Assembly: GCA_964016885.1 (NCBI GenBank)
Contig: OZ024745.1
Coordinates: 94,922,001-94,986,000 of the forward strand
Reading direction: 5' to 3'
Origin: Eledone cirrhosa
Lineage: Eukaryota
Length of the DNA stretch: 64,000 nucleotides
Position numbers and translations under genes: made by a program. The notes under the pieces are model-generated. The model ran no database searches and had not been told where the DNA came from. It worked only from the letters and a program-made list of their open reading frames with translations. Below are positions 12,440 through 63,305 of the stretch, in pieces (position 1 is the first letter of the stretch; the number at the start of each line of letters is the position of its first letter).

Positions 12440-14300
12440 TATATATATATATATATACACATACATACACACACACATATATATACACACGCATGTGTAC
12501 ATAGACACATACATACACATCAATATACACTCGTACAAATACATACATATATGCAAAGAGATAAACATGCTGACTGTAATTATGGCAAAAAGGAAGGTAA
12601 AGTTACATTGTAGTAGTGATTTGAGAAATTCTTGGATTTAGGATCAAGTGATGGCAGCAGCTGAGAAGGAATAAGTTTATGTGTTGATGAGCTACTTACA
12701 GACATTTGTGTGGTAAAGACTTGTGAAGGCTAGAGTGTACTTAATGAGTATATTTCTGTAGTGATTTATGCAGGGTAGTGGGCATCCTAGTTTAAAGCTA
12801 TGTTGTGTTGGTTCGATTCACGGAGGTTTGAATCTTATGAATTTAGTGGCAATTCTATGTCTGCAGAAGATAGATCTTTCTAACTTATTGTTAAGTAGCC
12901 TTTTTACATTTTTGAGGATATACATTAGTTCTAGATCACATAGCCCGCAGTGGGACATACCTGTACTATAGGTTTTAGCAGCCGACAACTTCGACCAGTT
13001 AATGCTGTAGTTAGTGTTGCTCTCCTTCAGTTCCCATATTTTTTTGGCGAGGGTTGTGGAACCCATAAGTGCACGGTTTTTCATTGAGTGCCTGTGCACA
13101 TACCATCTTTTTTTAAAAGAAACAGACGAAGAAAATACCTATGGTTCAACCCAATCTTCAACTCCTCTATAAAAAAACTAGACTGCCCTCGATATTCTTT
13201 AAACTTATAGATAAACACTTCCCTATCTCACATAGATATCACAAAATACTCAATAGATTTACCATAAAACTCTCATACTCGACAGCAGCAAATATAGAAT
13301 CACACATACGCAGGATCAACCACAGAAATATCTCTAGTAAATCAACCGCACCTATGCATAACGTAGCACCAAATTATAAGCATAAACACATCACAACATC
13401 ACAACCGCAAGCGCATACAAACGCGCAACAGCAAAACCCCAATGGGCATATATCACAACCCACTTAAAACAGAGTACTAAACAGGAGTGTAGAAGCTGCA
13501 CAAAATAGCGCCTCAAACTGTAACTGTCACCTACCAGATAGGTGCCCATTGGCGAACAGATGTCTCGATTCGAGCCTAGTATACATGTGCACGGTCAACT
13601 CGGATAACTCCACCTGGAATTACATAGGATCCACCGCGGGTTCTTTTAAAAAAAGATGGTATGTGCACAGGCACTCAATGAAAAACCATGCACGTATGGG
13701 TTCCACAACCCTCGCCAAAAAAATATGGGAACTGAAGGAGAGCAACACTAACTACAGCATTAACTGGTCGAAGTTGTCGGCTGCTAAAACCTATAGTACA
13801 GGTATGTCCCACTGCGGGCTATGTGATCTAGAACTAATGTATATCCTCAAAAATGTAAAAAGGCTACTTAACAATAAGTTAGAAAGATCTATCTTCTGCA
13901 GACATAGAATTGCCACTAAATTCATAAGATTCAAACCTCCGTGAATCGAACCAACACAACATAGCTTTAAACTAGGATACCCACTACCCTGCATAAATCA
14001 CTACAGAAATATACTCATTAAGTACACTCTAGCCTTCACAAGTCTTTACCACACAAATGTCTGTAAGTAGCTCATCAACACATAAACTTATTCCTTCTCA
14101 GCTGCTGCCATCACTTGATCCTAAATCCAAGAATTTCTCAAATCACTACTACAATGTAACTTTACCTTCCTTTTTACCATAATTACAGTCAGCATGTTTA
14201 TCTCTTTGCATATATGTATGTATTTGTACGAATGTATATTGATGTGTATGTATGTGTCTATGTACACATGCGTGTGTATATATATATATGTGTGTGTATG

Positions 14301-17119: not shown

Positions 17120-18295
<1,176 letters not shown>

Positions 18296-18749: not shown

Positions 18750-18949
18750 GTATATATCTGGTGTACACGTATACATGCACCATATTTGCAGTATGTCCTT
18801 AAGGTGATTGTGCCCACGTTTTCCTGCCTCTAGGGTTTGTGACCCACTTTACTTTCAACTATTATATTGTTAAGATTTATATGTTGTGATACATTAAGTA
18901 AAAGGTAAATATATTTTTAAATATGTATGTATGTTCCAGTTTCATTATT

Positions 18950-19140
18950 TTGGGATTGGCAGTATCGTTAGAGGGTCAGACACCATGCTTTGACGCATAG
19001 AGTTACGGCCCTTGCCAATCTGAGTTCAAATCCCACCGAGGTTAACTTTGCCTTTCCTCCTTACTCAGTCGATATAATAAAGTACCAGTAATGCACTGGG
19101 TAATTTGCTGGCCTTGTACCAAAAGTAGAAACAATTATTT
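18950..19140 (+). mobile_element. tRNA-derived SINE (family A)
   Basis: A/B boxes and family A body. Confidence 0.85.
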
Positions 19141-19439
19141 TGTACATTTTGTCCAATAGAGAGAGAGAGAGAGAGAGCCAGTTTCTAACATAGACACAAG
19201 ACTCTTTCAATGGAATTTAGACAACGTCAACTAGGTAAAAAATATTAATGCTTGGCTGCATATGTATATGTGTGTGTGTGTGCAGGTATGGACGTTATTG
19301 TATGTGTAGATCTGTATGTTTTGAGTTATATCTGTACGCGTACATATGTTTTGTATCTATACATTAATGGATTGTACTTGTAACTTCCTAAACTGTCGTG
19401 TTCTATCTGGTTCTGAGAAGCCCAGCTTCTCAAAATTAG

Positions 19440-19795: not shown

Positions 19796-20526
19796 ATATA
19801 TATATCAGGAGATCAATCTCTAGCTCATTTACAAATATTCCACATCAAGAATAATTATACGAAATTCCTGAAACAAATTTTAGAGATAATGTGATAATTT
19901 TTCATCAAGAAATCTATAATTAGGAAGTGAGTTTTATGGCTATGTGGAGTTCTACAGTAACGGAAAGGAATCATTAAGGATTTTCAAGCCATTTTTATTA
20001 TTTAAGATTCTCTGGATGAATTTATTTTGCCTTAATTATAAATGACTGTTCACAATAATGCACATTTAATTTCAATTAGGAAACCTTTATTTATTACCTG
20101 ACTTCATTGGAAATTCATGATTCGATGAACGAGATATAAAAACAAAACAATGAATCGAGATTGATGCATTTCATGCATCTCAAATATATGTTTTTTAATC
20201 TCAACAATCGTTGCTGGGAAATCTCTGTTGAAATTTAGAATTTCCTATGAAATTTGAAGCTTTCTGATGATAATTGAAAAAAAATTAAAATGATAATTCT
20301 GAAAAATTGTTAATTCTAGTTCTTACATAATTACGGAATTAAAAAGGTACAAGGAACATTTAATTAGATCCATAATCATTAAACGTTTAATCGGGTCATT
20401 ATCCTGACAAATGTTCCATACGTAATATTGAAACCAAGTCATTAACATACCATACAAGCGTCCGTTAAGTGATTACTTGATCTACTGTATTTAGCAGCCA
20501 AATCTTTTTCTTATTATTTTCTACTG

Positions 20527-20910
20527 TCGGTGAATTGGCAGTTTCGGTAGAGGGTAGGACGCCATGCATTCCAGCATTCCATTCCATTACGGTCTGAGTT
20601 CAAATCCCGTCGCGGTTAACTTTGCCTTTCATCCTTACGGGGTCGATAAAATAAAGTACCAGTAATGCACTGGGTAATTGCTGGCCTTGTGCCTAAAGTA
20701 GAAACAATTATTTTCTACTGTCCGTGAATTGGCAGTATCGGTAGAGGGTAGGACGCCATGCATTCCAGCATAGTTATGTCCCTTTACGGTCTGAGTTCAA
20801 ATCCCGTCGAGGTTAACTTTGCCTTTCATCCTTACGGAGTCGATAAAATAAAGTACCAGTAATGCACTGGTAATTACTGGCCTTGTGCCAAATGTAGAAA
20901 CAATTATTTT
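20527..20910 (+). mobile_element. two tandem family A SINEs
   Basis: Two head-to-tail copies at about 20527-20712 and 20722-20910. Confidence 0.85.
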
Positions 20911-21929
20911 CTACTGTCTTCACAAAAGGAGAAATATATATTATAAACACACACATAAGCCCCTCCCCATACCTACACACGTAAAACATACTCTCATACG
21001 CACATGTGTGTATATTATATATGTATGTATGCATGTATGTTCTGGTTTTATAAGTTTATGAATTTTTACCAATAGAGAGAGAAAGTCGGTTTCTAACATA
21101 GAGTCCCTCATTATATATGCATTTATGTATGTATTTATGTATGTATCTATATATGTATGTATGTACGTATCTATGTATGTCTGTGTGTATATGTATGTAT
21201 GTATTTATGTATGTGTGTGTATATATGTATGTATTTATGTATATACGCATGTATGTAAGCATTTCTGTATGTATGTATGAATGTATGTAGTTATGTATGT
21301 ATGTTTGTATGTATGTGTGTGTATATATATATATATATACGTATGTATGTAAGTATGTTTGTACGCTTGTATGTGTGTATGTGTGTTTATGCCTCTGTGT
21401 GAATGAAAGATGAAATAATCACAGCCACGGCAACAAACAGCTAACGGATTACAGGCTATATTCACTTCTAATACATCGTTCCACTTAAAGAAGGACATTA
21501 AAAAATGTTAAAGTATAAAAGTATACATTATAAAAATTTTGTATTGCACAGCATATAATTTCTTCTCAATAAACATTTCTTTCTTTCTAGCAGCATTTCT
21601 TAATTATGGTTGTATTAACCATTTGTTTCATAAAATTAATAGATTTGAAAGAGCTACACAGTAGGCAAGTATGTTAGAATTCGTGATTTGTTGCTAAGAA
21701 ATAGTAAAACCAATATAATATATGTGTAAAACTAATATGTGTACTTTCGCGACTTATTTAAGAGGGACGAAATATACGTCTAGAAAAGTCCACATGATAT
21801 AGGTAAACATTATTATAATGTATCAATCAATAAAATATCATATGATAGAAAATATCGTTGATGAATAATCATAGTTGAAACTGTGTTAGAGTAACTTATA
21901 TCTGTTACATGGGACCGTGGCGCAAACAA

Positions 21930-30606: not shown

Positions 30607-32330
30607 TTATTTCGGGGTGAATCGGAGGTAACCACAGTAAGTAAGGTACTCAATACATAGCAGAGTATAAAAGTTTTAATATAGAAGAGCTTCTACAGGA
30701 CTAGAACTGTTTCATTCGCGAGAATTCATCAGGGAGCTGGCTGTCCAAGTAAGTAGTTTTATTTATCTCTTTTATTTTCTGGTGGTAGGACAGGGTGGGG
30801 ATTCGGATGCGTGGAGGTCATTGGTTGAAGGATTTAAAGAAAAGGGAATTCAGTAAAAGCTAATTCTTTAAAGCTATTATTGATATAAACAAAGGTAGAA
30901 AGAATACTGTGAACAGGTTCAACTTGGAATACCTGTAAATTCTACATCACCTGAAGAACCTCTTCACTGGCCTCACCGGAGGTTTATACAGAGACGATAG
31001 CCTCTTCGCCTTTCACAAGGTTAACCCCAGAACCACTAATGGGTTTCGGAGAAACTTAAGATCGTTCTTCCGTAATCTAGGATTTAGTATAACCATAGAA
31101 TCTAATATGACTAGGGCCAACTTTTTAGATCTCACCCTCGACCTAGATACTTCCCTCTATTACCCGTACCACAAACCTAATGAGTCCCTTAGATATATTA
31201 ATGTTAATTCGAACCACCCCCAAAACATCACTGATAACTTAGTAAAAAGCGTCTCAATTAGAATCTCTGGCCTCTCGGCCAATGAAGATATTTTTAACGC
31301 CTCCGCTTCCTACTACAATGACGCCCTCATCCGCAGCGGATTTAAAGTAAAGATAACATACCTGGAAACCACCGCAAGGCTACCTAGGAGGAATAGGCAT
31401 AGGCAGATTAGCTGGTACAACCTCGTCTTCAATAGAGAGGTCTCTACACCTATAGTTAGGACATTCTTCACTTTGCTGAACCCATACTTCCCATACAACA
31501 TAGGTACTATACCATTTTCAATAAGAACACAATAAGACTCTCCTACTCCACTACACCTAACCTAGTTAGGAATATAGCCAATCTCAATTCTAAAAAATTA
31601 ATTAAACCAACTACCTCCGAACCCAATCCCCGGACTGAAGCCTTGTGTACTTGCCTAAATCAGGAAGCCTGCCCATTTGAAAATAAATGCCTGACAAATG
31701 ACATCGTATACAAATGTGATGTCATCTTAGGCACCGATGATAGCAACAACAAAAGACTTACATCGGCATGACTTCCAATAATTTTAAGACCCGGTGGTAT
31801 GCCCATACCCACTCTTTCAGAAGACCGGACAAATCAAATCAGACAACACTCACCTCCTATGACTAGGACCTCAAAAGGAACTCCAGCCCCTTCACGCTTA
31901 AATGGAAAATAATCCAGGAAGCGTGCTCATAAAAGGGAGGACACAAGTGCTGCGACCTTTGTATCTCAGAGAGCTACGAAATATTATTTGCCAAGGGCTC
32001 ATTACTGAACAAACTCTCTGAACACTGCCTGAATTGCATGCACAAAAACTTTGCAACTTTCAAATACTTTAAGCCAATGTTAATGCCATATGGCTAAAAA
32101 AGATTCCCTTTTTTTTTAAACCCCACTCGACAAAATACGCCTCCACCTCCTTCCCACCCTACCACTACCCCCTATCGACCCGAAACACGGCACTATGGTG
32201 ATGTAAGTATTTCTTACCTATCTGCTCTTTCCGCATGTAGAGCGTATTTCATCTTAATACTGTATATATGTGTGTGTGTATTTGTGTATATTTATGAGTG
32301 TATGTATGTACGTATTTGTATGAGTGGCCG
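30603..32330 (+). mobile_element. 5'-truncated Hydra-like PLE with inverted pseudo-LTR
   Basis: Inverted pLTR at 30603-30930; GGLYRDDSL, NFLDLTLDL, YPYHKPN, SNHP, CTCLNQEACP, IVY...YIG, NCMH; several frameshifts and stops. Confidence 0.9.
30688..30738 (-). ncRNA. type I hammerhead ribozyme
   Basis: agctcc CTGATGA attc-tcgc-gaat GAAA cag-ttctagtc-ctg TA gaagct; stems covary with 6998-7048. Confidence 0.8.
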
Positions 32331-32463
32331 TACGATTGTATGCGTATGTTTTGTGTGTACGTGCGTTGATATGTAATTACGTATATGTGTATGTGTGTGT
32401 ATGTATATATATGTATGTATATATATATGTATGTATATATATGTATATATATATATATATATT

Positions 32464-32542
<79 letters not shown>

Positions 32543-32659
32543 ATGTATGTATGTATATATATGTATATATATATAGGTGTGTATGTAGGTGTTTATATAT
32601 TTGTATATTTTTATATGTATATATATATGGGTGTATATATATATATATATATATATAAA

Positions 32660-33279
32660 TTAGCGAGAATCGTATTTCGGCTATTGGAGATTAGCGAAAA
32701 ACAACTTCCGAGATGAGTGGCGAGCGCTCCAGAGAAGCTAGTGAACTAGAGCAACAACGTTAGTTAAAAGGCCAAACACACTGAGACGATGGTTAAACAA
32801 TTATCCGCACAGCCATAGAAACGACCAAGTAATTCGGGTCAAACAAATAAAATGTGATTGAAAATTATACTTGGACCCCTGGAAGGTTGGTAATATCCAG
32901 TATGGGGTTTCTGCAAGTCTTAAATCAGGTACTGTCTGCTTAGACAAATAATGTTAAGATTTTGGTATGATGATCGAACAAGGAAGTCACTTTTTCAACA
33001 GGCTTTTAGATCAGTTCCAAGCCAAGGACTGACCGTTATCAAAACCCAGGTGGGGCTTGACAAGGGGGGGGGGGGGGCAACCCTTAGTTTTGGCGGATGA
33101 ATTCAGTATGTGTGTTATAGCAAAATTGCAAAATATCATAAAACGAATTAAGCTCTCAACAGAATGGTTTTAAAATTAACAACAGCTATTAATCCGTCAA
33201 TAGAATTAACTAAAAGAATCAAGAAAATTAACTGGTCAATAGCTAGACTCAGGAGATTAATACAAATATATGTTAGCGA
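32660..33279 (-). mobile_element. one-monomer copy of the ~613-bp retrozyme-like family
   Basis: Terminal redundancy TTAGCGA at 32660 and 33273; collinear diverged homology with 46591-47556; HHR-like motif at 32869-33003 (gcctg TTGAAAA...GAAA cccc...ggg TC caagt). Confidence 0.6.
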
Positions 33280-33283
33280 TATA

Positions 33284-33945
33284 TATAAAACGAAAAATCA
33301 GTGATGCATCTGAACTCAATTTATTGTGTGTTACAATTGTTTCGCCGGCGGACAGCTCGAGACACGATAATTGTGTAGATCTGTCTGATTCTGGATCCGC
33401 AGGTGCGACGGACACGTCTAATGATTTCGGAGCAAATTCTCTCACATATATATCTGTGTGTGTATGTGTTTTTATTTATATATGGGTGTATGTGTGTATA
33501 TATGTGTATATATGTGTTTATATGTGTACATATATATATATGTATATATATATATATATGTGTGTGTATTTGTATATGTGTGTGTATGTGTGTATATATA
33601 TATATGTATATATATATATATACTTGTGTATAATGGTAGCTATGGTGCTTCCATAGGCGGTATGCCAAAGTTAGCACTCAATATTCATACAGAACTTAAG
33701 TTGACGTGGAATGGGAACAGCCAATGGCATGATAGGAGTGGAAGATGTTTTTTGAAGGTCTTCTTTTGACGATAACACCCCAGTGAGAAAATTTGCTCTG
33801 AACGAACTACCCGTGTCCGAAGGAACCTGCAGCCGTAGAATCAGCCAGATCCATGCAGTGATCATGTCTCGAGCTACCTGCCGGCGAAACAATTGTAACA
33901 CACAATAAACTGGGTTCAGATGCATCACTGATTTTCCGTTTTTTT
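33284..33945. mobile_element. old inverted-repeat element with degenerate HHR
   Basis: Diverged inverted repeats 33284-33445 / 33783-33945; gtgt CCGAAGG...GAAA caattg TA acac at 33813-33901 (+). Confidence 0.55.
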
Positions 33946-34554: not shown

Positions 34555-34960
34555 CTAGATCTCTGTCAATTTCAACCCGAAGAAAGACTGCTGTATTCTG
34601 TGTCTGCAGTTTATCTCCGATTCTGCTCTGCTGCTGATGAGCTCGAAGGGTGCTCTTATTATATGGTAAAGTTCCACGAGGCAGAGCTCGCATTTCCTCT
34701 TGAAGTTGTACGGTGCTGCTCTGCTGACAATTTCCCAGTGTGTGGAGAAGCTGATGTTGGGGTCTTTTAATGTTGTGATGTAATTGGCGAGTGACGGGGA
34801 GTGTCTTATTTTCTTGTTTCTAAAAGAGTGGAGATGTGTTCGAAATCTAGCTTTGAACGGGCCAGAAGTGGCCCCTATATAATGTTTAACACTATTATGG
34901 TTAGTTATGGTGCACCTAACATTATCTGTCCTAACAGTTATGGTGCACCTAACATATATC
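34555..34960 (-). pseudogene. PLE GIY-YIG endonuclease fragment (Hydra-like)
   Basis: HYIGATSGPFKARFRTHLHSF...LANYI..LKD...WEIV..A.PY....KCELCLVE...NCRH. Confidence 0.85.
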
Positions 34961-36213: not shown

Positions 36214-37597
36214 ATTTATATATATAGACAGAGATAAATTCACACACACACACACATATATATATATACACACAAGTACGTATGAATATATATATGTATA
36301 CATTATGTGCATGTATGTGTGTGTGTGTATGTATGAGATGTGTCTGTGTATTTGTGTGTGTATATAAAGATACACATTTCATTTGTAAACAAAGCATGTT
36401 TTTAAAATGTCTTCTATATTAATTTTTTCCATTTCTATACATTTCAATTTAATTCAATATATTGACTTTGTGCACAAACAATACAAAAGTATATTATAAC
36501 GAAAGTTGAAGAAAAAATGGCGATTAAAGTATTTCGAGAGACAATAATAATATACAATATTCAATTCTAACGTTGGTACAAAGCCACATATTGTCTGAGA
36601 AGGGTGAAGTATATATGCTTGTATACATGCCTGGTCTCGTAACACTCGAGTGAGTCGTGGGAGCGTCGTATTGACATGCGGCGTTTCGAGTGCATTCTAA
36701 AACCTTGGTGACGTACATCACCTCTCCAGGTCTGAATACAGCATATTTCTTCTAGAGAAGGATAGAGAGTAAGAGAATGGAAGTGCTGAAGACATATAGA
36801 GGCTGAATCGACCCCCAGTACTTGACTGGTTCTTTGTTTTTTATTGATCTTGAATGGACGAAAATCAAAGTTGAGCTCGGTGAGATTTGAATCCAGAGAA
36901 TGGAGAGCCAGAATGTATATCGCAAAACATTCTATCAGACGTTATAAAGACTGCAAATTCGTCGCCTATGAAGTCAATATAACCGACCTCAATTTTTGAC
37001 CTAACCCTAAAAGATAAAGATAATTAGATGGAATTTGGACTAAAGTGGCAAAAGTGGCGTCGCCGTTCTACCATCTGTCGCTCTTAACACATAACTTTGA
37101 ATATCTCATACTAATGATTCTATCTCTGACAGAAGATCACATATGTTGAGTCAATATCAGTATCCGTGGAATTTGGCTAGCAATATATAATTTCTGCCAC
37201 TCCAACTACTTTATTTTATCATGATATCGAATGACAATATCGATCTTGATATATAATACAATATTAAATACGTTAATGATATATTGCATGTAAAATAAAC
37301 TCACACATATCTCCGAGAGAGATAGAGAGGGGGGTAGAGAGAGGGAGAGAGAGAGGGGGTGAGTAAGAAAAAGAGAGGGAGAATGATAGAGAGTAAGAGA
37401 AAGAGAGAAAGAGAGAGAGAGTGAGAGAGAGAAAACATGGTCCAAGTGTGTAGTAGAAAAGTTGCCCCGTGTTCCTAATGGCTATGTTTAAATAAACGGT
37501 AGATTATTTTAAGGATAACAATCTCTCATTTAAATATTATTCTTTTAAGATTATATATAATTGACTTAAGGATTAAAATCACTATGCAATGCTAAAT

Positions 37598-38216
37598 AAT
37601 TACTTCTTATATAGGCACAAGGCCAGCAATTTTGGTGGAGGGAAAAGTCGATTAAATCGACCACAGTACGTGACTGGTACTTTATTTTTTATCGACCCCG
37701 TAAGGATGAAAGGCAAAGTTAACCTTGGCGGGTTTGAACTCAGATCATAAAGGGCCGTAACTCTATGCTGCAAATCATGGCATCCGACCCTCTACAGATA
37801 CTGCCAATCTACCGCCCTTTTTTTAATATAGGCACAAGGCTAGTAATTTGGGGGGAGGGGAAAGTCGATTAAATCGACCCAGTGCATCACTGGTACTTTA
37901 TTTTATCGACCCCGTAAGGATGAAAGGTAAAGTTAACCTCGTCGGGATTTGAACTCAGACTGTAAAGGGCCCTAGCTCTATGATGCAAAGCATGGTGTTC
38001 GACTCTACCGATATTGCCAATCCAACGCCCCTGCAATGCTAAATAATTGTTTCTACTTTTGGCACAAGGCCAGTAATTAGCCAGTACATTACTGGTACTT
38101 TATTTTATCGACCCCGTAAGGATGAAAGGCAAAGTTAACCTCGACGGGATTTGAACTCAGACCGTAAATGGCCATAACTATGCTGGAAAGCATGGCGCCG
38201 ACCCTCTGCCGATACT
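37598..38216 (-). mobile_element. cluster of three family A SINEs
   Basis: Three co-oriented reverse-complement copies. Confidence 0.85.
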
Positions 38217-39084
38217 AGATCGTCGAAAGAAAGATTAACATATCCATGGTATTGAACCCGGGATTATTCGGCTTGTAGAAATAGCAGCTCAAACTAAAAC
38301 GACTCGCAGATCCCTGAGGTACGTACCTTATCGAGCAACGTTACTCTAACATCAATACTATTAATAATTACTTCTAACTTAGGCACAAGGCCACATTCTG
38401 CATGGCATAAATAGTCATTTTGATCACCTTCTGTACATGTTTTATCAATCCAAGGAGTGTGAAAAGCAAAGTTGCTTACGGTGGCTTTTGATTGAAAACG
38501 CAAAGACATAATGGAAAATTAGCTATATATGAACAATGAAAAGATTTGCAAAATTCTGTTCAATATTTTAAATACCTTGAGAACAGTCTAGTTGATTAAA
38601 TCAACACCTCTGTACGCATAGTACCTATTTAATTTTGTCTGACCTGGTACTAAATATATTTCGTCAGACACTTTTTCGTTCTGCCATTACCTTACAATTA
38701 GATAGTTTTGTCTATATAAAAGAGTACTTACTGTCATTATGGAAAATATAGAATAATGCTTTTAAATTTTGACATTTATCAACTTAAAAAGGAGATTTGT
38801 TTAACAAAACAGACAGTCTTCTGTTATTGAACAGATTAGTGAAAGTAATTTTCCCAGTAAAATTACATATTTGACACTCTGAAAATTAAGTTTGTAATTT
38901 TGACTGTTATTGAAAGTAAAATAAAAGATACTTACAAATTACAACTTGCAGCAATAAAGAGGTGTCTGTTTATATTGTTAGTATAAAGTTGAAGCTATTA
39001 TTAGGGGCAATGAGCAATTTCCTCTAATTTACATATTTGAAATGTTCATTTATAAATCACAAAGAGAATTATTTAACAAAATTG

Positions 39085-39700
39085 GTATTGGCAGTATCGG
39101 TAGAGGGTCGGACGCTATGCTTTGATGCATAGAGTTACGGCCCTTGACATTCTGAGTTCGAATCCAGCCGAGGTTAACTTTGCCTTTCATCCTTACGGGG
39201 TCGATAAAATAAAGTACCAATAATGCACTAGGTAATTGCTGGCCTTGTGCCAAAAAGTAGAAACAATTATTAATGAAATTTAGGCCGGTGGATTGGCAGT
39301 ATTGGTAGAGAGTCGGACACCATGCTTTGCAGCATAGAGTTACGGTTCTTTACGGTCTGAGTTCAAATCCCGCCGTGGTTAACTTTGTCATTCATCCTTA
39401 CGGGGTCGATAAAATAAAGTACCAGTAACGTACTGGGGTCGATTTAATCGACTCTCCTCTTTCCCGAAATTACTGGCCTAGTGCGTATACTAGAAATTAT
39501 TATTAGTGAAATTTGAGGGCGATAGATTCGCACTATCGGTAGAACCTCGAATAATATGTTACGTGGTATATAGTTACGTCCCTTTACGTTCTAAGTTCGA
39601 ATCTCGCCGAGGTTAATTTTGCCATTCATCCTTACGTGGTCGATAAAAAGTACCAGAAACGCAAAATTGTTCGCCTCGTTCCTAAATCAGAAACAATTAT
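39085..39700 (+). mobile_element. cluster of three family A SINEs
   Basis: Three co-oriented copies with A/B boxes. Confidence 0.85.
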
Positions 39701-39839
39701 TAATGAAATCCATAGAGCAGAAAGACTGCCAGCATGTAGGGCAAAATATTTTGTAGCATTTAATTACTGCCTTTTACATTCTATGTAACTTTACGTGTTC
39801 TCTAGTTTACTTGAATTATTTGGTGACAGAGTCAAATTA

Positions 39840-40020
39840 GTTATTGACCATTGTTCCTTTCCAGTCTGTTGATCGACGGTATAATTTCTTTTATCAAGAA
39901 GGCTTCCTTGATCCGCAGGTCTCCTATGTTGCGTTTCGTGAGTGTGAGTATATTGGCTTTGTTTTCACATTGAATGTGTTTCCGGGTTGACGAAGAGTTA
40001 GTAGTTCAACTAACAGCGTC
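39840..40020 (-). pseudogene. GIY-YIG C-terminal relic (Penelope/Poseidon-like)
   Basis: SSTRKHIQC...DLRIKEAFLIKEIIPSINR. Confidence 0.5.
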
Positions 40021-40059
40021 AATGCATCTATTTTGTCAGCACGTAATCTCTGTTTGGGA

Positions 40060-40523
40060 GGGGAGATTTATAATGGACGAACAGTCGGTGTTGATTTCTC
40101 GACCCTGTGAGAATGAAAGGCAAAGCTAACTTCGGCGGAATTTGAACTCAGAACATAAAAAGACGTTTCTATATGCCAAAAAGCATGTTGACCGACGCTC
40201 TACCGATTAGTGGCAATCTATCGCCCCCGGAATCACTATTACTAATAAGTATATATTAAATAGCTAATCATCAAAGCACATCCTATATGAACGAAAACAT
40301 ATATTTCAACTCTGCTCAGCTGAGAAAAATATAATCGTTTCTACTTTTGGCACAAGGCCAGCAATTAACGCAATGCATTATTCGTACTTTAATTTTATCG
40401 ACTCCGTAAGGATGAAAGGCAAAATTAACCTCGGTGGGATTTGAACTTAGACCGTAAAGGGCTGTAACTCTATGATGCAAAACATGGCGTCCGACCCTCT
40501 ACCGATACTGCCAATCCACTGCC
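40060..40523 (-). mobile_element. two family A SINEs
   Basis: Diverged copy at 40060-40228 and a younger copy at 40331-40523. Confidence 0.8.
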
Positions 40524-41021: not shown

Positions 41022-41068
<47 letters not shown>

Positions 41069-41627
41069 AGTGTAAGTTTCTACACAAAACGAAGGTTATA
41101 GAGAAAATTGAGGTTGGTAATGGCAAATGGAATATATAAGAGACAGAATACTTTTTTGTAAAAAAACACATAATTTTATAAGGTAAGGAAATAATAAAGG
41201 GTATAAAAAATGATCGGTTTCGATGGGTCTGCAAAAGCCATCTTTTCAAATATTGATTAATATTAAGAAAATTAATAATAAGAAGAGTTAAAATTTGAGA
41301 TTTGAAAATTCAAGTATAAAATTCAGTGTGGGATTTCATAGTAGTTTTCATCTTGGTAGCAGCAAGTTGACTGCTGTGTGCCTTTCTGGTAGTGAATGAG
41401 GAGTTATTTGAGGGAGTGGGTTATTTTATAAAGGTCAGATTTAGCAATGGCCAGATGGCCAGCTGCTGGTCAGTGAGGGGGTGGAAGCAATATACATACA
41501 TATATCTCCCTGTGGTCGGTAGGAGAGTGGAGAGTGATAGATAGGGATTTAGTGCACTTACACCTATATATACACACATACCCTCATCCACACACACATA
41601 CATATACATATACATACATATATATAT

Positions 41628-41694
<67 letters not shown>

Positions 41695-41817
41695 TATACA
41701 TATACACACATACATACACACATACATATACATACACACATACACACACACACACATATATACACGTACACACACATATATATATACACACATATATATA
41801 CATACACATACATCCAG

Positions 41818-45820: not shown

Positions 45821-45947
45821 ATATGTGTATGTATATATATGTATGTATATATATATGTGTGTGTATGTGTATATATATGTGTGTGTGTGTGTGTGTATGT
45901 GTGTATGTATATGTATGTGTGTGTGTATGTATGTGTGTATATGTATA

Positions 45948-46008
<61 letters not shown>

Positions 46009-46375
46009 ATATATATATGTATGTATATGTATGTGTGTGTGGATGAGGGTATGTGTGTATATATAGGTGTAAGTGCACTAAATCCCTATCTATCACTCTC
46101 CCCTCTCCTACCGACCACAGGGAGATATATGTATGTATATTGCTTCCGCCCCCTCACTGATCAGCAGCTGGCCATCTGGCTATTGCTAAATCTGACCTTT
46201 ATAAAATAACCCACTCCCCCAAATAACTCCTCATTCACTACCAGAAAGGCACACACCAGTCAACTTGCTGCTACCAAGATGAAAACTACTATGAAATCCC
46301 ACACTGAATTTTATACTTGAATTTTCAAATCTCAAATTTTAACTCTTCTTATTATTAATTTTCTTAATATTAATC

Positions 46376-46423
46376 AACATTTGAAAAGATGGCTTTTGCA
46401 GACCCATCGAAACCGGTCATTTT
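46376..46423 (+). ncRNA. hammerhead-like motif, U3:A8 core (second copy at 41207-41254, minus strand)
   Basis: aacat TTGAAAA gatgg...ccatc GAAA ccgg TC atttt; palindromic stem III, weak stem I. Confidence 0.6.
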
Positions 46424-46522
46424 TTATACCCTTTATTATTTCCTTACCTTATAAAATTATATGTTTTGTCACAAAAAACTATTCTGTCTCTTATATATTC
46501 CATGTGCCATTACCAACCTCAA

Positions 46523-46590
<68 letters not shown>

Positions 46591-46596
<6 letters not shown>

Positions 46597-47556
46597 GGAA
46601 ATCAGTAAAATCGAATCTCTGGCGGTTTGCAAGTAAATTCGGCCTACTTCTATGAAATGACGAGTTAGCAAAGCACTCGATAAGATAGGACCTAAGAGTA
46701 ATAACATACGTTTAAATAGCTTGACAAATCGAACAGTGTGGTAGGCGAAACTAACACACAATATATACCAAAGTAACGATAGAACTAATCAGGTTAAGAA
46801 AATTACACCTGGACAAATCAAACGAACAATCGTTTAAGGTGTTTCTTTGAATCCGAAATCAAATATCAGACTTACGTGAATGGCAAGCTCATGGTATTGG
46901 TGATCGAAGGGAGGATTCAGTTTATCAACAGGTATTTCGTTCTGCCTAGGACCGTAGTGATAAATTATATGTTGCTGCTCCATGCGGCTGCTAATCGTAT
47001 CTATAGTTATCACGTGTTAATTCTGGCAAGGTAAATAAGGTCCTATCTTATCGAGTGCTTTGCTAACTCATCATTTCATATAAGTAGGCCGAATTTACTT
47101 GCAAACCGCCAGAGATTCGATTTTACTTGCAAGTCTGATATTTGATTTCGGATTCAAAGAAACACTTTAAACGATTGTTCGTTTGATTTGTCCAGGTGTA
47201 ATTTTCTCAACCTGATTAGTTCTATCGTTACTTTGGTATATAGGCGGGTCATTCAAAATGCTAGCGAAAGGAAATATTTTAATTTCCGCTAATCATCATG
47301 ATAAGCTCTCAACTAGATGTTATAAAACAAACATAAATAATTAACCAATGGACAGAATTGTGTAATTAAATTAATTAGTTAATTATTAAATCTAGGAGAA
47401 TAATATAATTGGAAATCAGTAAAATCGAATCTCTGGCGGTTTGCAAGTAAATTCGGCCTACTTATATGAAATGATGAGTTAGCAAAGCACTCGATAAGAT
47501 AGGATCTTAGAGTAATAACATACGTTTAAATAACTTGACAAATTGAACATTGTGGT
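46591..47556. mobile_element. rearranged copy of the ~613-bp retrozyme-like family
   Basis: 46591-46745 is repeated directly at 47406-47556 and partly inverted at 47038-47126; 46753-46875 is inverted at 47128-47242. Confidence 0.75.
46806..46934 (-). ncRNA. hammerhead ribozyme, U3:A8 core, long stems II and III
   Basis: tacctg TTGATAA ac-tgaatcc...ggattca-aa GAAA cacc-ttaaacga-ttgt-tcgtttga-tttg TC caggtg. Confidence 0.65.
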
Positions 47557-47639
47557 ATATATATATATATGTATGTGTATGTGTGTGTGTTTCAACAATA
47601 AAACCATAAGTCAGCTGTAGGTAGAGAGTTAGTTCATTG

Positions 47640-52464: not shown

Positions 52465-52720
52465 CGCCAGTATTGCACAACGCCAGTATTGCACAACGCC
52501 AGTATTGCACAACGCCAGTATTGCACAACGCCAGTATTGCACAACGCCAGTATTGCACAACGCCAGTATTGCACAACGCCAGTATTGCACAACGCCAGTA
52601 TTGCACAACGCCAGTATTGCACAACGCCAGTATTGCACAACGCCAGTATTGCACAACGCCAGTATTGCACAACGCCAGTATTGCACAACGCCAGTATTGC
52701 ACAACGCCAGTATTGCACAA
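52465..52720. repeat. perfect minisatellite (CGCCAGTATTGCACAA) x16
   Basis: 16 identical 16-bp units with no spacers. Confidence 0.97.
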
Positions 52721-53460
52721 CGTAATCAAATAGGAGGTTATAAGTTAAGAAAGTATCATTTTCTTTAGAGTTGTTTTTTGAATATCTTATATCAATTATT
52801 AGATGTGCATTAAAATGATCAAATTGTATTCCATTCCATTTATACCAGATTCATCGATATATAATCGATATATAACAAACTAGAAAGAAATTTAAAAAAA
52901 AAAGAATTATCTCGGACAATAGGCATTTATCTAGAATAATCACTAAGTTTTAAGTGAATTAATTTAAAAGCCACCTGGTTTTCGAACCATATTTATTGGC
53001 ATCGTACATTTCCTCTGGCGTGCAGAAATACGAACGTATTTGAAGTAAAAGAGAGTGACATTAAAAGGTTTCGTTCCACAATAAAATACAGAGGCTGGTT
53101 GCATGATAAACATCAATTCATGAAGAGATATAACAGGAATATTTAAAGGAATTATTATCTTTAATGTACTACTCATTATGACTGACTCAAGATGAAGTAC
53201 ATTTGCAGATGTATACACGCTTTCCTATTAAAACGATCGGATTCTAATTTCCGCATTGTTCTCACGTGACAATATAATACACGTACGTTAATGGTTGTTG
53301 AAACAAATATTTCAAACAAATACTAGTCCTTGTGAACATGTATGCTTCTCTAAGAACATGCATGAATATATAAATATATAGAGAGATATATTTAAATGTA
53401 GGGTTCTGTATACAGACATGTTATATATAAATATATATTATTATTACTATATACTATAAA

Positions 53461-53648
53461 AGGTGGATTGGCAGTATCGGTGGAGGGACGGACGCCATGC
53501 TTTCCAGCATAGTTACGTCCCTTTACGATCTGAGTTCAAATCCCACCGAGGTTGACTTTGCCTTTCATCCTTACGGGGTCGATAAAATAAAGTACCAGTA
53601 ATGCACTGGATAATTGCTGGCCTTGTGCCTAAAGAAGAAACAATTATT
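53461..53648 (+). mobile_element. tRNA-derived SINE (family A)
   Basis: A/B boxes and body; a truncated copy also lies at 54746-54878. Confidence 0.85.
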
Positions 53649-53889
53649 TATTTATTTATATTTATATATATGTATCATTTCATATTTAATATACTATTAT
53701 ATCATCTCTAAGGTCCCCTTATGCCCCAGCACCCCCTGAACTTTCTCAATGCCTCCTCCCTCGGGGGTGGTAGCGCCTACTTTTAGAACCTCTGATCTAC
53801 AGCAAAGACACGAGTAAATAATCATACATATATTTAGTAAACGTTCCCTAAATCTTTATCTAAAGTCTGTATTAAGCCGTTAGGCCAAT

Positions 53890-56590: not shown

Positions 56591-56669
<79 letters not shown>

Positions 56670-56881
56670 GTTAAAGTGTACATCTACATATGTATACGGA
56701 AGTATTAGTATGCGTATAAATACACACATGTATACATATGTACATGTACTCAGCTTTTCACTAGACACTTTACAGTGAGTGTCAGCTAGTCTGTATGTAA
56801 CCACACAGGCGGACCGGGTTTTAGAGTCATACGAGTTTTCAAGGAAACACATTTCCTCTATTCTCCAGAGGGCCAGACAGG

Positions 56882-56926
56882 AATATTGGACTAGTTTCGA
56901 TGTTATTACATCTCATCAGCAATATT
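56882..56926 (-). ncRNA. type I hammerhead ribozyme (469-bp unit)
   Basis: aatattg CTGATGA gatgt-aata-acatc GAAA ctag TC caatatt. Confidence 0.92.
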
Positions 56927-57350
56927 TACCCATCTTCCGGCTTCTCTGGAGAATTGTAAAAGCACATATCGTTATATGCTTTTTCTATGAAAATTAGTAG
57001 TGGGTAGACTAATTTGCATAGAACGTGAGTCATTGTACGCACCGGTTCAGCGGAAACGATAAAAACAAATAACGAAACGAAATTAAATTTCGTTTCGCTT
57101 CTAACTCACTTTTGTATGACTGACGCTTAAACAATTAAGTTAAAGTGTACATCTACATATGTATACGGAAGTATTAGTATGCGTATAAATACACACATGT
57201 ATACATATGTACATGTACTCAGCTTTTCACTAGACACTTTACAGTGAGTGTCAGCTAGTCTGTATGTAACCACACAGGCGGACCGGGTTTTAGAGTCATA
57301 CGAGTTTTCAAGGAAACACATTTCCTCTATTCTCCAGAGGGCCAGACAGG

Positions 57351-57395
57351 AATATTGGACTAGTTTCGATGTTATTACATCTCATCAGCAATATT
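57351..57395 (-). ncRNA. type I hammerhead ribozyme (469-bp unit)
   Basis: Identical motif 469 bp away. Confidence 0.92.
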
Positions 57396-57896
57396 TACCC
57401 ATCTTCCGGCTTCTCTGGAGAATTGTAAAAGCACATATCGTTATATGCTTTTTCTATGAAAATTAGTAGTGGGTAGACTAATTTGCATAGAACGTGAGTC
57501 ATTGTACGCACCGGTTCAGCGGAAAAGATAAAAACAAATAACGAAACGAAATTAAATTTCGTTTCGCTGTCTGGCCCTCTGGAGAATAGAGGAAATGTGT
57601 TTCCTTGAAAACTCGTATGACTCTAAAACCCGGTCCGCCTGTGTGGTTACATACAGACTAGCTGACACTCACTGTAAAGTGTCTAGTGAAAAGCTGAGTA
57701 CATGTACATATGTATACATGTGTGTATTTATATGCATACTAATACTTCCGTATACATATGTAGATGTACACTTTAACTTAATTGTTTAAGCGTCAGTCAT
57801 ACAAAAGTGAGTTAGAAGCGAAACGAAATTTAATTTCGTTTCGTTATTTGTTTTTATCGTTTCCGCTGAACCGGTGCGTACAATGACTCACGTTCT

Positions 57897-57904
57897 ATGC
57901 AAAT
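57897..57904 (+). promoter_or_regulatory. octamer motif ATGCAAAT, candidate snRNA-type distal element (one per unit)
   Basis: Exact octamer about 90 bp upstream of the HHR, retained in diverged relatives at 8098 and 47975; function is inferred only. Confidence 0.4.
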
Positions 57905-57989
57905 TAGTCTACCCACTACTAATTTTCATAGAAAAAGCATATAACGATATGTGCTTTTACAATTCTCCAGAGAAGCCGGAAGATGGGTA

Positions 57990-58034
57990 AATATTGCTGA
58001 TGAGATGTAATAACATCGAAACTAGTCCAATATT
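57990..58034 (+). ncRNA. type I hammerhead ribozyme (469-bp unit)
   Basis: Perfect stems I and II, palindromic stem III ACTAGT, predicted cleavage after GUC at 58027. Confidence 0.92.
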
Positions 58035-58458
58035 CCTGTCTGGCCCTCTGGAGAATAGAGGAAATGTGTTTCCTTGAAAACTCGTATGACTCTAAAACCC
58101 GGTCCGCCTGTGTGGTTACATACAGACTAGCTGACACTCACTGTAAAGTGTCTAGTGAAAAGCTGAGTACATGTACATATGTATACATGTGTGTATTTAT
58201 ACGCATACTAATACTTCCGTATACATATGTAGATGTACACTTTAACTTAATTGTTTAAGCGTCAGTCATACAAAAGTGAGTTAGAAGCGAAACGAAATTT
58301 AATTTCGTTTCGTTATTTGTTTTTATCGTTTCCGCTGAACCGGTGCGTACAATGACTCACGTTCTATGCAAATTAGTCTACCCACTACTAATTTTCATAG
58401 AAAAAGCATATAACGATATGTGCTTTTACAATTCTCCAGAGAAGCCGGAAGATGGGTA

Positions 58459-58503
58459 AATATTGCTGATGAGATGTAATAACATCGAAACTAGTCCAAT
58501 ATT
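58459..58503 (+). ncRNA. type I hammerhead ribozyme (469-bp unit)
   Basis: Identical motif 469 bp away. Confidence 0.92.
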
Positions 58504-58787
58504 CCTGTCTGGCCCTCTGGAGAATAGAGGAAATGTGTTTCCTTGAAAACTCGTATGACTCTAAAACCCGGTCCGCCTGTGTGGTTACATACAGACTAGC
58601 TGACACTCACTGTAAAGTGTCTAGTGAAAAGCTGAGTACATGTACATATGTATACATGTGTGTATTTATACGCATACTAATACTTCCGTATACATATGTA
58701 GATATACACTTTAACTTAATTGTTTAAGCGTCAGTCATACAAAAGTGAGTTAGAAGCGAAACGAAATTTAATTTCGTTTCGTTATTT

Positions 58788-58828
<41 letters not shown>

Positions 58829-59322: not shown

Positions 59323-61719
59323 ATGGATTATTACAACATAACCAATTCAACTAAAGACATTCCTATACCTGGTAAATCTGAATTCACCAAACTTCTAATT
59401 GAAAAAACTGACTCCTTCGTAAGAAGACTTAGATGGATAGCCTATTTCTATGACCAGCTCCTAAAAGGGAACTTCTATACCAAAGAACATAACTTCCTCG
59501 ATCATCTATTTAATTCTAGAAGAAATCCTCCTTCCAACAAAAATCTAGTGCAATTCGAGGAAGAGTTAACTAAAATAATAAAAAATCTTAAATTCAAGAG
59601 ATACCCTTACAAAGGACAAGAGCACCTTGTAAATCTCAAGAACACAATTTCTAACATAAATTCCTCAAAAAATGTTTTAGTCCACTCTGACAAAACCAAT
59701 AACTTATATGGTATTTCCAACGATAATTATAACAACCTTATCCTAAAGGAACTTAGGAAAAAATATCGTAAAACCAACCATGAAAATTTAGAATACATAA
59801 ACCTTGAAGCCTCTGAGATTATGTCAAAACTTGGCATTGAAAAAAAGACCGAACCATTCCTCCCAAGAACTCCGAGGATAAATCTCAAGGATCACAAAAA
59901 CAATTTTCGCACTGAACTACCTGTTAGATTAATCGCCCCCTCTAAATCTGATCTGGGGGTTGTTAGTAAAGCCATCTTGGATAGAATTATCCCACAGGTT
60001 CGTTCTAATTGCTCTTCTTTGAACCTAAATTTATGGTTTGGTACTTCTGAAGTGATTGGCTTGTTCAACAAATTGGATAATAAAAACAAACTAAAATTTA
60101 TTCAATTTGATATTGCCAGCTACTATTCCTCCATTTCGCCTTCACTTCTCAATAATGCTCTATCTTTCGCACTTAAATATTCTGACATCACCACAGATGA
60201 ACTTCACATCATCCTCACCGCACGTAAAACCATCCTAGAGTTCAACAACGAATATTGGACCAGAGCCGATACCTCTAACAACTTCGACATCACAATGGGA
60301 GCATCCGATTCATCCCAATTGACTGATTTAATTGGTATCTTTATTTTGAACTCTTTGAGTCGGAAAATTCCTCAACTTCGCGGTGGAATTTATCGTGACG
60401 ATGGACTCTTTACTATCTTAAATTGCAATATAGTTAACCTTAATATTATTAAGAACAATATACGTAATCTCTTTAACCAATATAACCTAAAAATTGAATT
60501 TGATAACAATATCAAACTAGCTAATTTCTTGGATGTATCTCTTAATCTTGACACTGGCCTATATTACCCTTACCATAAAAACAATGAGAACCTAAATTAT
60601 GTTAACTTTAAATCTAACCATCCTACTAATATCAAGAATGCTATAGTTAGTAATATTGGAAAAAGAATATTTAACATATCTTCTAATAAAAACATCTTTG
60701 ATGCTAACGCCAATTACTATAATAACGCACTTTCTAAAGCCGGCTATCCTGATAAAATCAAATATAGTAAAGAAACAAATTCTAAAAGAACTTACAGTAG
60801 AATAATTAATCATGATCATTCCAATAACTTTAATAAAAGACCTAGATACAAAAACATAATCTGGTATAATGCTCCTTTCTCCATCTCTATTAATAACAAT
60901 ATTCCTAAATTATTCTTTAGTGCCTTAAATAAATGCTTCCCTCCCTCACATATCTATAGTAAAATATTTAACAAACACACCATAAAATTTTCTTATTCTA
61001 CATCCTCCAATATTTCCAACATTATCTCTAAACACAACAATACTAAATACTAAATCTCTTCCTTCCAACACTGAATTTCATAATAACAGTAATAGTACTC
61101 CCGACGTCATTGTAAACCCTAGGCTAATTTCTGTAAACCCAAATACAACGTCAAACACAACTTCGCTAAATGTTCATAATCCAACTCTAAATCAAGAAAC
61201 TATTATTCCTATCGCAAACAACTTCTCCAATCCAATTCCTTCTATAGATAACACTAGGTCACTCATTAATAATCTCTCTAATTGCAATTGCAATTGCCCT
61301 ATAAAAAATAAATGTCCTCTCAACAACCATTGTCTTGATAAAAACTTAATTTATGAATGTAAAGTTATAACTAACACCAATTCCTTCACCTATTTTGGCT
61401 CCACTTCCACGTTTTTTAAAGCTCGTCTCTATAATAATCATTCATCTTTTAAATACAAACTTAAAAGAACCAACACGGCTCTCTCAGAACTCATATGGTC
61501 CTTGAAAGACAAAAACATTAAATATACCATCTTTTGGAAGAAAGTTTCTTCTGCGTCTCTATCTAAAATCTGCAATCTCTATCTAAAATCTGCAATCTCT
61601 GCCTAAATGAAAAAATTACCATTATCTCTAATCTAGATTCTATAATAAATAGACGAATAGATTTGTTTTCTATCTGCTTGCATAAATTCCATAAGACATT
61701 TCACAAAGTATACAACTAA
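59323..61719 (+). pseudogene. PLE RT plus GIY-YIG polyprotein (~789 aa if repaired), frame broken by 7-bp and 20-bp tandem duplications
   Basis: SDKT; LKDHK..F....PVRLI.PSKS; FDIASYYSSI; ITMG; GIYRDDGL; NFLDV; WYNAPFS; then CNCPIKNKCPL, LIY...YFG, CNLC..E, ICLH in shifted frames. Confidence 0.92.
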
Positions 61720-62718: not shown

Positions 62719-62788
62719 ATCATTATAACTATATATATATATATATTATTATTATTACTATATATACTATATATATATATATTATTAT

Positions 62789-63265
62789 TGGATTGACAGT
62801 ATCGGTAGAGGGTCGGACGCCATGCTTTCCAGCATAGTTACGTCCCTTTACGATCTGAGTTCAAATCCCGCCGAGGTTGACTTTGCCTTTCATCCTTACG
62901 GGGTCGATAAAATAAAGTACCAGTAATGCACTGGTAATTGCTGGCCTTGTGCCTAAAGTAGAAACAATTATTATTACTATATAACTATTATTATATAGGT
63001 GAAAAACAAATCCCGCCAAGGATTAACTTTGCCTTTCATCCTTACGGGGTCGATAAAAGAAAGTACCAGTAATGCACTGGGTAATTGTTGGCCTTGTGCC
63101 TAACGTAGAAACAATTATTATTACTATATATAGAAAGTTACGCCCCTTTACGATCTGAGTTCAAATCCGGCCGAGGTTAACTTTGCCTTTCATCCTTACG
63201 GGGTCGATAAAATAAAGTACCAGTAATGTACTGGTTAATTGGTGGCCTTGTGCCTAAAATAGAAA
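62789..63265 (+). mobile_element. cluster of three family A SINEs (one full, two 5'-truncated)
   Basis: Family A body at 62789, 63005 and 63136. Confidence 0.85.
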
Positions 63266-63305
63266 AAAAAAAAAATAAAAATAAATATTATTACTATATA
63301 TATAT

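Follow-up and report, generated by a model that had tools for sequence, protein, structure and literature searches.

Two loci of the window, the 64,000-nt stretch of Eledone cirrhosa DNA analysed here, carried copies (A and B) of one superfamily of non-coding repeats, 580–621 bp long. Both were on the minus strand and inserted in (TA)n. The family is probably a non-coding, non-autonomous retroelement of about 600 bp that is copied by the enzyme of a Penelope-like element (PLE), and whose predicted hammerhead would cut only part of the template RNA. Insertion ends that stopped at the predicted cut in three subfamilies pointed to cleavage in vivo, and told which form of the RNA was copied. If this is true, mapping of insertion ends could measure the ribozyme activity of any PLE or retrozyme family from the genome alone.

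The window DNA was AT-rich, of animal type and dense in microsatellites. Copy A (32660..33279, minus strand) was a subfamily A insertion comprising a full unit of about 613 bp plus 7 nt of the preceding unit, and was 94% identical to a family unit over 32660–33270. Its fixed 3' end at 32660 ran into a (TA)n-rich target tract (32400..32659, no strand assigned), and its truncated 5' end at 33279 was followed by a short TA run (33280–33287). The 7-mer TTAGCGA, from which the sequence-only reading had taken a period of 613, was indeed present at 32660 and 33273, 613 apart; it occurred a third time at 32691, and alone is a weak sign. The period itself was genuine, as many genomic relatives entered a second unit head-to-tail about 605–617 bp on. 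An inverted repeat (33287–33445 and 33783–33942, 81%) began right after copy A and flanked a TA/TG tract; it is probably another TA-targeting element.

Locus B, read along the minus strand, consisted of unit positions 469–621, 1–164, inverted 339–450 and 519–608, and 175–621, followed by (TA)n. Copy B, positions 175–621 of the subfamily B unit (46591..47038, minus, 95% identical to a family unit), abutted (TA)n at 46566–46593 with its fixed 3' end at 46591. Positions 1–164 (47241..47404, minus, 96%) were joined to a 5'-truncated preceding unit (469–621 at 47405..47557, minus, 95%), and a TA run lay beyond 47557. This head-to-tail junction, noticed in the earlier reading, was present at 47404/47405 without an ORF. 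Positions 47038–47242, which had been omitted from the earlier alignment, were an inverted insert of two pieces of the subfamily B unit, 519–608 (47038..47127, plus strand) and 339–450 (47131..47242, plus strand), each 98% identical to it. The second piece contained the 3' half of the ribozyme and gave a partial match to the ribozyme profile (47124–47199). Together they replaced about 10 nt of the unit. Each of the two loci thus laid out had one whole ribozyme only. A 780-bp inverted duplication (41032–41810 and 45822–46593, 92%) ended at the TA tract of copy B.

The similarity of the two loci, formerly aligned by eye, was significant. Local alignments gave E values of 2e-7 (62%, ribozyme region) and 2e-6 (62%). 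The A and B units aligned end to end over 375 of 671 columns with a score of 62.5, compared with −110 ± 21 for dinucleotide shuffles (0 of 100 as high). On the other hand, the description of the unit as circularly permuted was not borne out: the 3' end was fixed, the 5' end alone varied, and no random entry points were seen. Loci A and B were not permuted relative to each other, both beginning at one homologous fixed end. The proposal of a retrozyme-like unit stood as to the lack of ORFs, the hammerhead and a template longer than the unit, and fell as to random permutation. The (TA)n target, the PLE-like layout of the insertions and the accumulation of 5' ends at the cut had escaped the earlier reading.

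Other repeats were noted in the window. A separate 469-bp unit at 56664–58795, with a hammerhead of canonical type (Rfam HH9, 31.8 bits, below the cut-off), was present as back-to-back blocks of 1.9 and 2.6 units that were 99% identical and bordered by TA tracts. Decayed PLE RT/endonuclease fragments of other families lay at 12857–13905, 17281–17915, 30894–32043, 34600–34890 and 60295–61683. A SINE-like repeat of about 190 bp had more than 15 copies (48–238, 18944–19145, 20508–20918, 37595–40523, 53422–53673, 62732–63298 and others), and 52465–52722 was a perfect 16-bp tandem repeat of 16 copies.

A first look at the genome gave 4,360 and 2,755 candidates for the families of the two loci, the top copies being 89–96% identical. 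The core pattern of the ribozyme had at least 1,636 exact matches in the genome, and the reversed control had none. It revealed further subfamilies, including C (580 bp, 77% to A) and D; identity between subfamilies was 56–77%. Dimers and arrays of up to 6.7 units were found, with a ribozyme in each unit. There was no ORF inside the units or at a common 5' junction, and the ORFs at the loci belonged to neighbours. A box similar to the 5' segment of the ribozyme itself (CUGUUGAGAG) was conserved from subfamily A to subfamily D at about unit position 108–120, about 150 nt upstream of the hammerhead (33149–33162 and 47305–47318 of the window, both minus). In subfamily D (L076, L080 and L082), a TA/TG microsatellite was located within the unit directly after the ribozyme.

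The predicted hammerhead, on the minus strand, starts with stem I (CCUG with C(A/G)GG) and the core bases U3 U4 G5 A6 N7 A8 A9 and an extra A. These are followed by a stem II domain of 74–78 nt, another extra A, G12 A13 A14 A15.1, a stem III domain of 30–35 nt and GUC. The core was that of a type I hammerhead (UUGANAA/GAAA/GUC). In copy B (46808..46932, minus; U3 46928, A8 46923, G12 46845; predicted cut between 46812 and 46811), the core was intact, the stem II and stem III domains were 74 and 30 nt long, and positions C10.1 and A11.1 were mismatched. The hammerhead of copy A (32870..33002, minus; U3 32998, A8 32993, G12 32911; predicted cut between 32874 and 32873) was decayed, with CAAG as the 3' strand of stem I and with mismatches and lost pairs at the base of stem II, and its predicted P(stem I) was 0.0. 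The motif CCUG-UUGA(U/A)AA...GAAA...UC-CA(G/A)G, which the earlier reading had seen in both loci, was found there, but CAAG was a private change of copy A: position 1.3 was G in 36 of the 37 sampled A-type ribozymes.

Variation in the core was scored in copies sampled by their 3' end and unselected on the core (A, n = 37; B, n = 38). All 12 core bases were intact in 30/37 A and 31/38 B copies. The sole polymorphic core position was N7 (A: 30 G, 6 A and one gap; B: 30 U and 8 A). Positions 10.1–11.1 were G-C in A, and C-G (16/38) or C-A (21/38) in B. Nearly all copies had an extra A on either side of stem II, including the one before G12.

Pairing was examined in 20 sequences picked to span the subfamilies. 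Paired cells amounted to 95.4%, compared with 17–51% in slid controls; kinship among the 20 inflates the shuffle test of pairing. Seven of 21 pairs changed on both sides, six of them among the eight of basal stem II and one among the three of basal stem III. Stem I changed on one side only, being partly fixed by the search pattern, and the invariance of the core and stem I in this set was by construction, because 16 of the 20 sequences came from the core pattern. This comparison suggested a fold of three helices with an open stem I, supported by covariation.

The long stems II and III proposed from the letters were supported, and the predicted fold would close as a monomer (6/7 copies). When the modelled RNA extended 6 nt past the motif, its active fold was 0–1.5 kcal/mol from the minimum in six of seven copies, copy A being the exception. 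With 45 nt past the motif, the predicted P(stem I) was at most 0.04 in L091 and in the A, B and C copies, and 0.6 in L080. A predicted downstream hairpin would account for this drop with longer 3' sequence. The folding z was −2.57 for copy B in the window, and −0.95 to +0.35 for four others (−0.34 for copy A), that is, unremarkable in four of five copies.

Rfam models gave no hammerhead match in four loci at E ≤ 0.5, and none at the two loci of the window among the 150 matches listed of 209; the Rfam matches at these two loci were rejected as miRNA noise driven by microsatellites. Counts of animal hammerheads are likely short, because the Rfam models miss more than 1,600 intact places. Matches to the core pattern in viral (1) and metagenome (48) stretches were attributed to chance, the family stems being absent as judged by sequence and crude fold energies.

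Insertions were sampled by exact 3'-proximal patterns, first by coordinate among the matches listed: 90 loci from 100 listed of 353 matches for A, 90 from 100 of 458 for B, and 68 from 100 of 660 for C. Removal of duplicates (three each in A and B, four in C) left 87, 87 and 64. A common 3' end was shared by 82/87 A and 86/87 B insertions (168/174 together) and by 60/64 C insertions; five A, one B and four C insertions were dropped from the counts because their 3' end was not the standard one or because they extended past the retrieved DNA, and a 4.8-unit array was excluded from the C table. TATATA was present within 24–28 nt past the 3' end in 81/82 A, 82/86 B and 60/60 C, and (TA)n was found on both sides of the insertions. 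The 3' end was downstream of the predicted cut by 214 (A), 221 (B) and 191 (C) nt.

The 5' ends, in contrast to the fixed 3' end, varied. Insertions longer than one unit made up 17/82 A, 19/86 B and 22/60 C, and no A or B insertion among the 168 sampled attained two units. Short tandem duplications of the 5'-terminal 10–25 nt were seen in copies ending near the cut (L108, L120, L135, L153 and L322); these look like the result of template jumping where an RNA ended. The copies of the family had a fixed 3' end and were truncated at the 5' end, as in the target-primed insertion of PLEs; together with the partial tandems, the inverted pieces and the microsatellite target, these are the features of a non-autonomous PLE. 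The RT and GIY-YIG ORF between terminal repeats (pLTRs) that marks an autonomous PLE was not found in it.

These insertions also bear on the idea that the units are merely pLTRs of autonomous PLEs, remaining as truncated ends. PLE copies are mostly 5'-truncated and have hammerheads in the pLTR, according to the available text of PMC4209133, and in one B copy (L214) no TA run separated the unit from the adjoining PLE 3' end. However, sampled insertions longer than one unit continued into the previous unit, with no shared ORF junction in 238, and the junction in L214 was rejected as a shared 3' end, this being where that PLE family normally ends by itself. Local DNA scores were within those of shuffles (best, 37/300 as high). 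A reading frame of B that had been likened by eye to a PLE N-terminus also failed (153/300 shuffles as high). We consider this idea very improbable, and for A, B and C it is largely refuted; an ancestral pLTR origin of the units is still likely. The direct adjoining in L214 (1300–1320) would reflect either a template switch or the loss of a short TA tract.

The 5' ends were not spread evenly around the predicted cut. Of the pooled cDNAs at risk, 46 of 185 ended within the first 25 nt on its 3' side, compared with 5 of 139 within the following 25 nt upstream (Fisher p 5e-8). By subfamily, the ends in the first bin were 26/72 for B (background 0.038 per bin, p 5e-19), 11/60 for A (0.051, p 2e-4) and 9/53 for C (0.032, p 5e-5), and those in the next bin 1/46, 2/49 and 2/44; the 25-nt bin was chosen after viewing A and B, and the prediction for C was written down first. 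Thus, 17–36% of cDNAs arriving within 25 nt of the predicted cut stopped there, and 64–83% passed. The excess recurred one unit further (B 4/10, A 3/6, C 2/15), at p 0.08 and not significant in C.

Most ends in the peak were 4–20 nt inside the predicted 5' end, and few were at 0 or +1 (B three, A one, C none). The modal ends were +9 to +10 in B, +4 to +9 in A and +4 in C (six copies, on the U that comes first after CGGG). Individual ends could be misplaced by a few nucleotides, and segmental duplication may account for some of the copies. These modal positions fit trimming to TA microhomology. As the cause of the peak, A/T microhomology was rejected: bins equally or more A/T- and TA-rich had no such peak.

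A stall of the RT at stem III, or a transcription start there, would also place 5' ends in this region, the hammerhead then being without activity or importance in vivo. Position alone does not separate stalling at stem III from cleavage, because the base of stem III is 1–2 nt from the cut, and the peak ends were mostly at +4 to +20. PLE repeats are described as containing promoters (PMC6765202, in part), and PLE hammerheads as weak in vitro (PMC4209133, in part). Yet stem II (about −15 kcal/mol), about 6 kcal/mol stronger than stem III (about −9), gave no stop (4/134). The edge was at the predicted cut in three subfamilies that differ in stem III and in downstream sequence, and the core was kept while the stems covaried between subfamilies only 56–77% alike. 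We therefore judged a stall or a transcription start unlikely. The likely source of the pile-up is self-cleavage, in vivo, of part of the template RNA.

We propose the following course for the insertion. A PLE RT/GIY-YIG protein acting in trans would nick (TA)n. The cDNA would start at the A/U-rich junction of units and be copied toward the 5' end. The stops at the cut would be run-offs from RNA with a 5' end made by self-cleavage, and the run-off ends may then be shortened by a few nucleotides, as far as the first TA microhomology. The remaining cDNAs would read through a site that was uncut or re-ligated, which is how we interpreted the 64–83% that passed. A hairpin predicted just downstream may compete with stem I and so keep cleavage partial.

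The stops at both the first and the second site led us to linear RNA with a 5' end there as the template. A classical rolling-circle retrozyme, in which excised monomers form circles that serve as the main template and yield cDNA longer than a unit, has in its favour the cDNAs that passed the cut, and the RNA circles demonstrated for other animal retrozymes (PMC7229834, in part). In subfamily C, arrays of 4.8 and of 6.7 units had the standard 3' end and TA on both sides, and pairwise identity was near-uniform within them (96.6–98.3% and 90.3–93.6%, respectively). They resemble one-step products, such as a single round of synthesis would give on a circle or a long multimer. A closed circle, however, would yield no run-off. 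None of the 168 A and B insertions reached two units, and entry was fixed rather than random. A circle as the main template is thus quite improbable. As a minor or extra template it fits partial cleavage of a linear RNA too, and rare arrays of five to seven units may possibly derive from it.

We lean, somewhat, toward a more specific form of the partial-cleavage reading. The 5' ends of the insertions would be a fossil record of germ-line self-cleavage by a monomer-competent, long-armed U3-A8 hammerhead, limited by the hairpin and cutting 17–36% per site. PLE-type enzymes would then copy both the cut linear RNA and the read-through RNA, uncut or circular.

A helper was assumed, because no autonomous PLE with the ribozyme or the unit of the family was found among the PLEs compared. 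PLE endonuclease fragments of one family were present in 10 distinct loci among 273 examined, often sharing the TA tract. That family was large and young, with 13,399 candidates, 95–98% protein identity and open frames above 1,200 aa. One apparently intact member, L460 (G000:C28:68554000-68562000), was arranged as pLTR-ORF-pLTR with an ORF of 1,229 aa, a Cx4Cx2C linker, a C-terminal GIY-YIG, a minimal C3-G8 hammerhead in the pLTR and (TA)n ends. Pfam assigned the 1,229-aa ORF to no family and recognized GIY-YIG only, in the C-terminal piece, so that the putative names 'PLE' and 'Neptune-like' rest on anatomy and motifs. A sister family was found at L329–L358. In the family of L460 and L459, 3' ends lay within the start of the ORF, at two or three fixed positions.

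The two TA-targeting PLE families had no significant DNA or peptide similarity to A and B. The long-stem ribozyme profile matched the element's own repeat in 0 of 62 PLE loci, and 14 other PLE 3' flanks had no sequence in common with the A or B units. These young, TA-targeting PLEs would be candidate helpers; shared targets are not proof.

As far as its sequence goes, the family would be placed with the animal non-LTR retrozymes (Cervera and de la Pena 2020; Li, Clavereau and Pollet 2026), having non-coding tandem units with one type I hammerhead each. It appears to behave like a non-autonomous, PLE-dependent retrozyme, a class that is already known. The available text of bioRxiv 10.64898/2026.07.22.740005 describes animal retrozymes as non-autonomous PLE derivatives with units of 51–972 bp. 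With those described there and in PMC7229834 (in part), the family shares ORF-less tandem units, low GC, dispersed monomers and short multimers, a length within this range and a PLE as the proposed helper. Classical animal retrozymes, as these sources present them, have canonical cores and a helix III of 1–2 bp, whereas the family here has U3-A8, a stem II of about 75 nt and a stem III of about 30 nt. In the family here, the fixed 3' end in (TA)n and the pile-up of 5' ends at the cut were also measured.

The ribozyme itself is closer to those of PLEs, for which the available text of PMC4209133 gives a U3-A8 core and an extra base after A9. With the U3-A8 pLTR variant of Schistosoma Cercyon described there it shares the type I topology, the U3-A8 covariation, the extra base between A9 and 10.1 and the short stem I. 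A large helix III is also reported there for fungal and protist PLE hammerheads, the fungal form cleaving as a monomer. The metazoan PLE ribozymes of that text are minimal and dimer-dependent, whereas the one here has both U3-A8 and long stems II and III, besides an additional A in front of G12, in an ORF-free unit. Searches of the main texts of freely accessible papers gave no description of this ribozyme form or of an accumulation of insertion ends at a hammerhead cut; supplementary variant tables of published work could already contain the form.

In its insertions, the family is like the EN+ PLEs and their non-autonomous derivatives such as MRC1, whose anatomy and (TA)n preference are described in PMC8557442 (in part): partial tandems, 5' truncation, inverted pieces and preference for (TA)n are common to both. 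It differs from EN+ PLEs in lacking an ORF and any sequence match to the PLE families tested. The available text of PMC8557442 states the role of the hammerhead in PLEs and animal retrozymes as unclear, and that of PMC4209133 states that in vivo evidence for PLE hammerheads is lacking. For one PLE, the available text of PMC11167929 reports an internal RT start, and cleavage in vitro that required protein and was dispensable for insertion. The start of the cDNA downstream of the hammerhead cut is thus shared with that element, Poseidon PAc. On the other hand, that text reports no RNA-seq reads ending at the site in PAc, whereas in the family here the genomic ends accumulated there.
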